Shown one piece after another: positions 56,427 to 64,000 of a stretch of 64,000 nt of DNA. Position 1 is the first letter of the stretch. Each line of letters starts with the position of its first letter. The position numbers and the translations under genes were made by a program. The notes under the pieces are model-generated. The model saw nothing but the letters and a program-made list of their open reading frames with translations. It had not been told where the DNA came from and did not search any database. Origin of the DNA: Anolis carolinensis (Eukaryota); assembly GCF_035594765.1 (NCBI RefSeq), contig NC_085844.1, forward strand, positions 135,966,622 to 136,030,621. The letters run 5' to 3'.

Positions 56427-57797
56427 ATGCATCGAACTCAGGCCTTTGTGTTTTATCTTCTCTTTGGTTTCAATCTCCCAAAAGCAAAAGGCAACTGTTA
56501 CTTTGAACGGTCCCAACAGCGGTGTGTGTGTCCATTGCTTGTGGAGACAGAATTCTACACCCTTTTCAATTGTCTCCCAGCCACCACATATGAGCTCCGA
56601 GAAGGAAATCTGGAACAATTTGCAGTCTTCTCAATAATCCAGACAAGTCCAGAACTAATAGATTACTTTAATGGATTGCAAGTAAGCAAGTTGATCTTTA
56701 CAGACCTCATAGTGCCAGAGGTTCTCTTACCAGCAGCCATGCAGTTTCTTTCCTTCTTACCTCTGGTCTCTGAACTGGAGTTTGTAAATTGTACTTTTCT
56801 TAGATCTGTTGACCAGCTTGGTATAAATAAATTTAACCTACAGGTTTCTTCTCTGCGCTTCCACAAAGTGACAGCAGCTCCCTTGGATGATAGATTTGAC
56901 ATATCTAGCCTGCAAAACTGCCTGAAGACCTTAGAAATCCTGACAGTAACAGAGTCACAAGTCACATCTATTCCTTGCAAAATTAGCACAGTGTTGAAAA
57001 CGCTGCACTTTTTAGATCTTTCAGGAAACCATTTCCAGGACCAGACTCTAAAGACATCATTCTGCAGAGGTGCTTTCTCACAACTCCAAGTGCTAAAACT
57101 GCATAGGAACAACCTGAGTTCTTACGAAACAGTATGCCAGACTCTTGCTCATCTCAACCGGCTCACTCACTTGGACCTTAGTCGGAATGACTTCCTGCCT
57201 GGACCACCTTTCTCTTCCTGTTTGTGGCCACAGTCACTACGTGTCTTCAACTTGTCCAGCACAGGATTAAAGCACATGGACAGAGCTTTGCCACCTAACA
57301 TTGAAGTATTAGATCTGAGCGCCAATCACATTTTTATTCTAGACCTCTCCATCTCTGGGCTGAAAGAGCTCTACTTGTCCAACAACAGGCTGCAGACCAT
57401 CCTCTCAATCAAGAACCTTCCAGGTTTGGAGGCCCTCAGTATAGATCAGAACCAGCTCTCCCAACTCCCTACCAAAGACCTCCTGCATTGGAAACACCTG
57501 AAGAGCTTAAGAGCTGGACTCAATCCCTACAACTGTTCCTGCAAACAAACTATCAGGGAGATCCAGGGTCTGGCCACCCACAAGGCCTTGCTGCCTGATT
57601 GGCCTCACGATTACATATGCAGGTCTCCTCCAGACTACCAGGACTACCTTTTGGATGAGGTGCCTCTCTCATTGCTGCAGTGCAACAAGGCAGCAGTGGT
57701 TAGACAGGGCTCAATAGTCTGCTTGTTGACATGTCTTCACCTGGTCCTTGGTTTGGTCTCACTACCAACATATAGAAGTCAATTTGTTGTGTTGTAA
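56427..57797 (+). CDS. CD14: Monocyte differentiation antigen CD14 (LRR protein with LRR-CT and hydrophobic C-terminal segment), 456 aa
   Basis: Acceptor ttttccag ends at 56416, then Kozak GCACCATG at 56427. Signal peptide, CD14-type N-cap [12 protein letters not shown]...NC (human CELDDEDFRCVC), multiple LxxLxLxxN repeats, LRR-CT NPYNCSC..DYICRSP..C and a hydrophobic tail. Syntenic position beside TMCO6. Confidence 0.88.
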   Translation: [456 protein letters not shown]

Positions 57798-58350
57798 ATC
57801 TGGCAGCAAAGATGAATGCTTTGGATAGGGAGGGCCGAAGCTTTGGGGAAGTGGCATACTTAATAGAGTATCTTTGTCGAAGAATATTATGTAATGATAC
57901 AGTTTAAACTATCACTGCTAGAAAATAAGAAATTTGTTTTTAAAAGAAAATGAAGATTGCTTTGTAAGACATCTGTCTAAGTACCTTTCATCATATTTTG
58001 TCCTATATAGTGAAAGCTCATGCTGTTCCGTCTCCCAGGAGTTTGATTTGCATTGCCCCATAGTAGGAAATAGCACTTGTTTGCATTTCTTCCAGGGCTG
58101 TTGCAGATTCTGCAGCACCCTGATAGTTAACCATTAGCAGAGTTTGTAGCCGGCTCAGCAAAGTCTTTGCTGCTGAAAGCTTGCAAAATATCTTTTTGTT
58201 CTGGAGACCGCCCCTTTTCCTGGGGATGAAATCTCCATTTTGAGAAGCCTTTTGCCTTCTAGACAGAAGAGAAAAGAACTCAAATGTGCTTGTGTGGTCA
58301 AGCCAGGCCAGCTCAGACAAGCCATCGTAAGTACTGACCTCTTGCCTATA

Positions 58351-58578
58351 AAACTGGTGCTGAGTTCAGATAGGGGAAGACCTGCTCTTTCCAAGATAGC
58401 AACTCAGCACTGGGCAAATAATACCCCAGGATTTCTTTGCCATTGGAAGAAGCTCTAATTGCTTCGTCTCCAAGCTAGCTTTTAGCTTAGATAGTGAAAG
58501 ACCTGCTCTTTTTGATATAGCAGCTCAGGGCTAGGGTAGAGAGGATCTCAGGATCTCTTCACCTTTGGAAGAAGTTAA
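58351..58578 (+). repeat. Two-unit diverged tandem repeat (period 121 bp), each unit with a 60-nt hairpin
   Basis: ACCTGCTCTTT at 58380 and 58501; shared AGATAG, CTCAG, CAGGAT and TTGGAAGAAG blocks. Confidence 0.8.
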
Positions 58579-59513
58579 CCCAGCAACTAAGGGGGAAAGC
58601 AAGAAAGGAGCATCTGCAAGGTTTTATAAGTTGATTGTTGTATTTGTAGCCACTACAATTTGTGCCAAGCCTGCCAAGGACTTTGAGAAAATAAAATCTT
58701 GTTTGATTGTTCAACTTGAAGTGACTTTGGTTACTGGGATTCCTGAGCTTCAAAATAAGGCCCCCGCAGTTCACCCGGGCAAAGAAAGAAGCACATCTTA
58801 AAGCTCTAAAAGGTGTCTGGGTGTGACGGCATACATGCAATAAAATATCCGCCATAAGAGCATGGGGTATTTTTACTGACAAAGACAGGTACAGCAGCAA
58901 AATCATAGTCCAGGAGCCATTCCTGTCATAACTGCACTTATTCCGTATCACTTATAGCACTGAATTTACTGTCCAAAGTCTTGGTCCCACAGCCACGTTT
59001 TTAGTTTCTTTCTAAAGGTCAAGAGGCAGGGGGATAATCTTTCCTACAGAAATGATCATATGGATGGAAGGTAGACAAAATAAGCAGCAGAAGCACTCCA
59101 AATAAAGAAAAGCCTTTGTATCTTCTGTGTTTCATTCCGTTCAAAGAAGGTGTAATATTAAGATGTGCTTCTTCAATTTAGAATATGAGATTTAATCCAC
59201 TGTATAAACTCTACAATATTTTGAGGCAAAAATATGGTGGAGGATGTTCTATTTGGTTTTCAGATTGTTTGTTCTTTGAAATGTGGGTTGGCTGTAAACA
59301 AGTAACTGAGGACCAGTGGCATCCTCAATTGAGAACATATCTGTCTCTTGATACAGGTATGGGGATAGGAGTGGGGAAGCATCAAGGCCTGGCAACCATA
59401 AGTGTCCCCCCGGCCTCCCTTCCAAAACAAGGATTCTGTCATTGATCTCATGAGGTTGTACTTTCCCACATGTACTTATCTTTGTTTCATAATGGGGATG
59501 TTTTAATGATGTG

Positions 59514-62996: not shown

Positions 62997-64000
62997 TTCT
63001 AGAGGATACAGCCATGCATTTGAAACAGAATATAGTACTGTAATTGTGTGAACACACCTTATCTTACATGACGCCAAACAAAATGCGAGTGTTCTGTCTG
63101 TGAAAAAGTGGACATTACACTCTTTCAGTCGCCAGAACATGGAGCTGAGGACTCAGCATTGCTGGAAGTGCAAGCCAATTCTCTCTCTCACCCTGTCCTA
63201 GTACTTTGTCTGCTTGTAAAACTGCCATTTGTCCTGAGTTCTGCATTTATAATGCTCCAAGGATAGCTCTTGGGAATTTGCTTCGCCAGACGTCAGAATT
63301 AAACATTTAACAGTAATCCTATCACTCTGGTAACATTATCTGCTTTGCACAGTCCACAAATGAAAAGAGTGGGCAAATGAGAGCATACGGTTGTCATCAT
63401 GGATGCTGAACAGGTGGGTTTCATCTATAGACTAAAACAGATGGATTAAGGCAATTGGGGTTTTACAGAGAAAGCAGTTGCTATCTTTGAGCACCTGACT
63501 CTCTGTTGCTCACCTGCTGTTTAGGGTGTTTGGTTTATATTAACATCTGCCAGGGTTTTGAACCACCTGCATGGCTGTTTGCTGTTGCTTCCTTTTAATC
63601 TTTCCTCTTTGATTTGGAAAGAACTGAAGCTTCTCCACAATATCTAATGTGCTTTCTTTCAGCCTGGAAAAGATGTACATGTCCAAGCTGCTGTGGGAAT
63701 CCGACGGATAGCAGGTACCTCATCCGGCAGTTGGAAGTCCCTTTACAGATGGCTGTCAACATGGCCAAAATGCTGGGTTGGTTTTCTTATGGAGAAAAGG
63801 GCAGACACAAAATCATGTTGGATATTCAATCTACCCCAGCTAAAAGGGATCTGAGTGTAGGCTTCTACATATTCCAAGCATCTGAGCAATTAACGAGGGA
63901 CTATGTGAATAGACGAATTGTTGGATTGAAAGGGTCACTTATGTTTGGATATTTGTGCTTTCTTAATAATTCATGTCCTTTTGAACTCATCAAGTATATT

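Follow-up and report, generated by a model that had tools for sequence, protein, structure and literature searches.

The region downstream of the CD14 gene in the window, that is, the whole 64,000-nucleotide stretch of Anolis carolinensis DNA that was analysed, contains two tandem copies of a unit of ~101 nt, and each copy is predicted to fold into a long hairpin on the CD14 strand. The two copies are a real structured duplication that offers fair, two-sequence evidence for selection at the RNA level. We consider the chances about even that the two units constitute a duplicated RNA element that binds protein in the CD14 3′UTR and that, by analogy with known messages, would tune the half-life or the translation of the message. 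The features of the region are collected in Table 1.

Table 1. Features of the CD14 gene and its 3′ region, numbered from the first letter of the window.
Feature	Position	Strand	Basis or remark
CD14 coding sequence	56427–57797	+	ORF, 456 aa, leucine-rich repeats
Weak terminal-repeat-like pair (58345–58354 / 58621–58630), 9 of 10 bases complementary, TTG outside both arms	58345–58630		Encloses both units; of uncertain significance
Tandem unit 1, ~101 nt	58354–58454	+	Alignment of both copies; model R1
Long hairpin 1: 13-bp basal stem, 7x8 internal loop, 7-bp upper stem, CCUGC loop at 58381–58385	58354–58413	+	Folding
Invariant CAGGAT, tail of unit 1	58427–58432	+	Alignment; CAGG complementary to loop CCUG
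Small hairpin 1 (TCTTT/GAAGA) and invariant GGAAGAAG	58434–58452	+	Weakly supported
Tandem unit 2, 102 nt	58475–58576	+	Alignment of both copies; model R1
Long hairpin 2: 12 of 13 basal pairs, 6-bp upper stem, CCUGC loop at 58502–58506	58475–58534	+	Folding
Invariant CAGGAT, tail of unit 2	58549–58554	+	Alignment
Small hairpin 2 (TCTTC/GAAGA) and invariant GGAAGAAG	58556–58574	+	Pair probability 0.36–0.82
AATAAA, earliest canonical poly(A) signal 3′ of the CD14 stop	58690–58695	+	TGTA upstream (58639, 58645), GT-rich tract downstream

Judged by its relatives and its neighbours, the gene upstream of the units is CD14, in agreement with the original prediction. A protein identical to its product is present in a public collection, and the nearest named relatives come from Anolis sagrei (79–84%), followed by many squamate CD14 proteins at ~57–72% (Sceloporus CD14, 72%). 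Leucine-rich repeat families of Pfam were matched in the protein and a TIR domain was absent; some of the relatives are automatically named TLR2, and the top match among solved structures was the TLR2 ectodomain. Furthermore, fragments of WDR55 and RED/IK lie upstream on the minus strand, which agrees with the anole gene order Cd14-Tmco6-Ndufa2-Ik-Wdr55 given in a table of PMC2764143. At least two CD14-like paralogues apparently exist in A. sagrei, at 84% and 79% to this protein and both automatically named TLR2. Elsewhere in the window, an exon-like open stretch follows a pyrimidine-rich AG at 63645–63770 (+), and a TcMar-N7/N8 terminal repeat is present that is listed for A. carolinensis (PMC3014272, in part).

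The putative UTR was defined as 57798–58720 (923 nt), and the units are positioned in it 560–780 nt 3′ of the stop codon. The first AATAAA had been expected at about 58839; it was found earlier, at 58690, which is still downstream of both units, and the CD14 mRNA likely ends near 58715. No canonical AATAAA or ATTAAA is present from the CD14 stop to the units. Five variant poly(A) hexamers occur upstream of the units, with TATAAA at 58347 immediately 5′ of hairpin 1, so a shorter CD14 mRNA is possible. The putative UTR is devoid of AUUUA and, the two units apart, has no significant sequence match elsewhere in the window. Beyond it, a perfect 16-bp inverted repeat (58786–58801 / 59158–59173, 356 nt apart) was reached in 1 of 500 shuffles; inverted repeats of at least 16 bp are also found in 11 of 37 window tiles of 1.7 kb, and this pair is not unusual among them.

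Alignment of the two copies showed that their homology continues 41 nt past the long hairpins, making the repeat longer than the 60 nt first proposed. The copies differ in 29 of 101 columns, 21 of which are transitions, and the blocks AGATAG, AAGACCTGCTCTTT, ATAGCA, CAGGAT and TTGGAAGAAG are without change between them. The internal loop of each long hairpin carries an unchanging UAG on both strands. Upstream, the segment at 57996–58038 has short similarities to unit 2 (21 nt, 81%) and to the spacer preceding it (25 nt, 72%); model R1 found no match there and these similarities are probably due to chance.

Both long hairpins were recovered at the coordinates originally proposed, with the 121-nt spacing, the stems and the loops as described. 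Folded alone, hairpin 1 reached −26.1 kcal/mol (z = −3.9; 1 of 1000 shuffles equally stable) and hairpin 2 −17.1 kcal/mol (z = −0.9; 180 of 1000), and 9 of 3197 60-mers sampled from the window were as stable as hairpin 1. The folding z of the 261-nt region was −1.8. The stability of hairpin 2 alone, this regional value and the 60-mer count speak against the fold being more than chance. When the whole putative UTR was folded, the two long hairpins dominated the ensemble, with pair probabilities of at least 0.9 for 17 of the 20 pairs of hairpin 1 (its outer three, 0.17–0.81) and of 0.83–0.98 across the 18 pairs of hairpin 2. The long stem of copy 2 formed with RNA parameters and was lost with DNA parameters. 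The small second hairpin that had been expected after each long one was weak, with the pair probabilities of Table 1 for copy 2 and 0.0 for copy 1 in all three wider contexts.

Two further pairings were noticed around the units. The CCUG of the apical loop and the downstream CAGG make a candidate 4-bp pseudoknot of −3.4 kcal/mol, which is invariant and has no covariation, and a match of this type has a chance probability of ~0.09–0.17. In both copies, TTGGAAG can instead pair with the upper 3′ strand in a 7-bp helix, although this helix is rich in G-U and of low complexity. Upstream of unit 1, a series of smaller hairpins occupies 58040–58260 with local z of about −2 to −2.6, and structure may extend more widely through this stretch of the UTR. 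A weak CDE-like hairpin with a UAU triloop and six pairs (three of them G-U) was noticed at 57863–57877, close to where the putative 3′UTR begins.

The evidence for selection on pairing comes from the differences between the two copies. As the original prediction claimed, 13 of 13 basal pairs form in the first copy and 12 of 13 in the second, while 7 of the 13 pairs differ between the copies. Two double-sided changes from T-A to C-G had been reported and both were found, together with a third (G-C to T-G), making the total three. In all, 10 of the 26 basal-stem positions differ, giving three double-sided changes, three one-sided changes that still pair and one broken pair. The long hairpins have 20 pair columns; 14 of their 40 stem positions differ, yet only 2 of 40 pair-cells are broken. 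Under a null of point mutations only, which starts from a flawless palindrome in two copies and scatters 14 substitutions across them, the probability of two or fewer broken cells was 0.0003, 0.0012 and 0.0032 at transition fractions of 0.6, 0.72 (the observed value) and 0.8, respectively; these values roughly double if either strand counts, and they are somewhat optimistic because the stems were picked after looking. With the six columns of the small hairpins added, the probability at a transition fraction of 0.72 was 0.0015. When the partners were slid by 1–3 columns, only 0–1 double-sided changes were seen, against three in the true register. Against this, a column-shuffle control reached the observed value in 68 of 500 trials, two rows giving little power, and two of the three double-sided changes are adjacent, such that one event or a symmetric slip could have produced them.

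The wobble pairs carry information on the strand. It had been proposed that they work as G-U on the CD14 strand only, and the long hairpins indeed contain six G-U against no A-C (P = 0.016), or seven against one (P = 0.035) when the boundary pair of the small hairpins is included; each pair column of the long hairpins is Watson-Crick in at least one copy. In the 178 other inverted arms of the window, found by a strand-neutral rule, 150 G-T and 150 A-C were counted, and arms with three or more such mismatches were one-sided in 4 of 31 cases. It had also been proposed that the loops are conserved while the stems vary, but the contrast between hairpin loops (3 of 20 positions changed) and basal stem (10 of 26) was not significant (Fisher P = 0.11). 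The loss of the copy 2 stem under DNA rules further supports selection on RNA structure. Retention together with a 6:0 split against a 150:150 background favours selection on RNA-level pairing, as far as two sequences allow.

A neutral history could leave a similar picture if a chance palindrome had been duplicated and had drifted without function, with template switching during replication occasionally re-matching its arms. By copying Watson-Crick complements, template switching is able to give rise to stems and to compensatory changes of several bases (PMC8794818, in part), and it can mimic compensation; the changes at pairs 5–7 are clustered, and over the whole unit paired (15 of 50) and unpaired positions (14 of 51) diverge equally. 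However, the clustered pairs of copy 2 are C-G, U-G and U-G where Watson-Crick complements would be expected, later drift should have given G-T and A-C alike, and at 29% divergence all but 2 of the 40 cells still pair. We regard neutral drift as clearly unlikely.

A mobile origin carries more weight, though it too seems unlikely to us. The units would in that case form the inner part of an element of low or medium copy number, either a MITE of an unlisted family or the tail of a retroelement, with CD14 merely its host; selection acting on the element itself, or mirror-copying, would have given the hairpins their form. The terminal-repeat-like pair fits such an origin, since it brackets the units with TTG on both outer sides and the last base of its left arm is the first base of unit 1; this geometry, which was chosen after the fact, was found at just 9 of 2532 window positions, and ~11 kb of the window is self-repeated. 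On the other hand, a wide scan returned 33 such inverted pairs, among which ~0.5 with a 3-nt duplication would be expected, and neither a poly(A) or repeat tail nor a B box was seen at the units. The six long MITE-like palindromes of the window contain both wobble types (14 G-T to 19 A-C), against 6:0 in the units. A search of the 64 kb with model R1 found no third copy, the best outside match scoring 11 bits against 118–121 for the training copies, although by a hand estimate using a genome size of ~1.8 Gb it rules out only families above ~80,000 copies.

The ends and the TTG were also compared with the hAT, TcMar and Chapaev MITEs of Anolis, using as criterion the listed terminal repeats with an 8-bp, TA or TWA target duplication (PMC3014272, in part), and they fit no family in Tables 1 and 2 of that paper; the hAT-N6/7/8 repeats had no match within 6 kb. 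The units share the genome context of the palindromic hAT MITEs described there, but they have no YARNG terminal motif, no 8-bp duplication and no further copy in the window, and their wobbles are one-sided. Beyond the window, the core hairpin pattern gave no match in viral contigs, in metagenome contigs or in prokaryote genomes. A looser pattern gave 22 viral matches with at most 9 of 13 basal and 4 of 6 upper pairs and at most 13.2 bits under model R1, which were taken as chance. A search for CD14 in metagenome contigs yielded one locus (L023, probably bird-like) from 127 candidate stretches, at 43% identity; no unit matched in its 3′ flank, which at 437 nt is too short to count.

The units were then compared with described RNA families, none of which the original prediction had recognised, and the Rfam search and the tests of individual classes bore this out. 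Rfam gave no match at the gathering score over the whole window, local Rfam scans gave five and two weak unrelated matches (E 0.2–8), none near threshold, and a tRNA/tmRNA scan gave none. The apical loop of an iron-responsive element (IRE) has a consensus of the CAGUGN type; the loop here is CCUGC, CAG[A/T]G occurs only at 58138, and no IRE was matched in Rfam. The SECIS core is AUGA...GA, and no ATGA is present on either strand of 58300–58620, the CD14 ORF has no in-frame UGA and Rfam gave no SECIS match. Similarly, the hammerhead core CUGANGA is absent from both strands of 58300–58620. The units contain neither a YRU/AAU triloop nor a GUUYUA-type hexaloop on a 6–8 bp stem as in the Roquin CDE/ADE, and the putative UTR offers no CNGGN loop on the sense strand closed by at least 4 bp, as in ZCCHC14/TENT4 or Smaug-type elements. 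The antisense CAGGU pentaloop is energetically unfavourable (+1.6/+1.0 kcal/mol, versus −3.7/−1.9 for the other register). No description of a structured element in a reptile CD14 3′UTR was found in the literature covered, mostly open-access papers. The units are likely to be a duplicated element of no described family, an undescribed control signal.

The same tests bear on the idea that the units are a separate small non-coding RNA, miRNA-like, snoRNA-like or driven by a TATA box, and lie outside the CD14 message. TATAAAA occurs immediately 5′ of unit 1, yet it abuts the hairpin instead of lying 25–30 nt upstream. An ANANNA box of the H/ACA type follows each long hairpin (58416, 58540), a motif common by chance (9 in 321 nt), but the lone ACA in 58300–58620 lies at 58317, upstream of the hairpins, the C box is absent downstream of them, the B box is missing and Rfam returned no snoRNA or microRNA precursor. 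Applying the rule for the position of Drosha cutting to the long hairpins places the large internal loop at the expected cut site. Furthermore, three sense-strand motifs had no match in the anole miRNA tables of PMC4858913, as far as these are contained in its 10 supplementary files (including precursor sheets of 352 and 261 rows; sense strand only). An origin as a separate small RNA is therefore very unlikely in our estimate.

Nor do we give much credit to the units being a duplicated DNA enhancer, whose conserved blocks would be transcription-factor sites with GATA- and ETS-like words and whose pairing would be incidental; this appears most improbable. Three of the four plus-strand WGATAR words of the 923-nt region do fall in the units, and CAGGAT and GGAAG look like ETS cores. 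However, copy 2 has lost one of the GATA words, and the retained pairing and the strand-biased wobbles would be left unexplained. Both the small-RNA and the enhancer explanations account for less of the data.

Duplicated structured modules are known from several RNAs. The constitutive transport element of MPMV and the direct repeats of Rous sarcoma virus are duplicated modules of ~100 nt with purine-rich internal loops near the RNA 3′ end; the anole units resemble them by description, but belong to a cellular gene around which no retroviral context was seen. The transferrin receptor mRNA carries five IREs in tandem (PMC3355573, in part) and Nfkbid multiple Roquin stem-loops (PMC11499389, in part). 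With these the units have in common that stem-loops whose stems vary recur in the 3′UTR of a regulated mRNA, in this case an innate-immune one, and that they probably act by protein docking, and they differ from them by the CCUGC apical loop, a far longer hairpin, the 7x8 internal loop and the lack of an Rfam match. The Roquin CDE/ADE, described as YRU or GUUYUA loops on 6–8 bp stems with pentaloops discriminated against (PMC11609897, in part), also lie in immune mRNA 3′UTRs, and the upper stem of 6–7 bp is alike, but the anole hairpins carry a pentaloop. The HBV PRE SL-alpha and HCMV RNA2.7 have a CNGGN pentaloop bound by ZCCHC14-TENT4 (PMC11055085, in part); the anole hairpins have pentaloops as well, with CAGGU at both loops on the minus strand, but on the sense strand the loop is CCUGC, and the antisense register makes only 3–4 bp with positive energy. 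Taken by analogy, the units would most plausibly work like the described tandem 3′UTR stem-loop elements, yet they belong to none of those tested.

For the duplicated protein-binding element that we prefer, the following working mode may be envisaged. In the predicted fold, each copy would have a sequence-variable 13-bp basal stem carrying a nearly fixed top of 34 nt, which is made of the internal loop, both strands of which contain a UAG, of 6–7 bp and of the CCUGC loop. The top would be the recognition surface, in keeping with the little variation seen in it and in the two tail blocks, although their contrast with the stem is not significant; the basal stem would be a scaffold whose sequence can change as long as its pairs are kept, and two copies would offer two docking sites. 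Speculatively, the reader may be a UAG-recognising tandem-RRM protein, of the hnRNP A1/Musashi/DAZAP1 type, and the CAGG downstream may be a pairing partner of the loop CCUG. The suggested effect on CD14 mRNA half-life or translation is drawn from the analogy with tandem IREs and Roquin stem-loops (PMC3355573, PMC11499389, both in part). A bolder proposal, which we hold to be unlikely, is that the ~101-nt unit represents a new mRNA element family common to squamate CD14, with a bent purine-rich internal loop and CCUG docked on CAGG, acting in tandem on CD14 output after bacterial stimulation through a reader protein new to this type of shape.

Should the units turn out to be the relic of a mobile element, they would extend the catalogue of anole repeats only slightly. 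To our knowledge, few structured 3′UTR families exist in vertebrate immune genes besides the Roquin/Regnase stem-loops. If the units are functional, their two natural variants provide a built-in test by already revealing which bases can change. A CD14 duplication in A. sagrei would supply extra natural copies of the 3′ element for comparison. If functional, the units would represent a new element shape and probably a new RNA-protein pairing, and would place an LPS co-receptor under lineage-specific post-transcriptional control.
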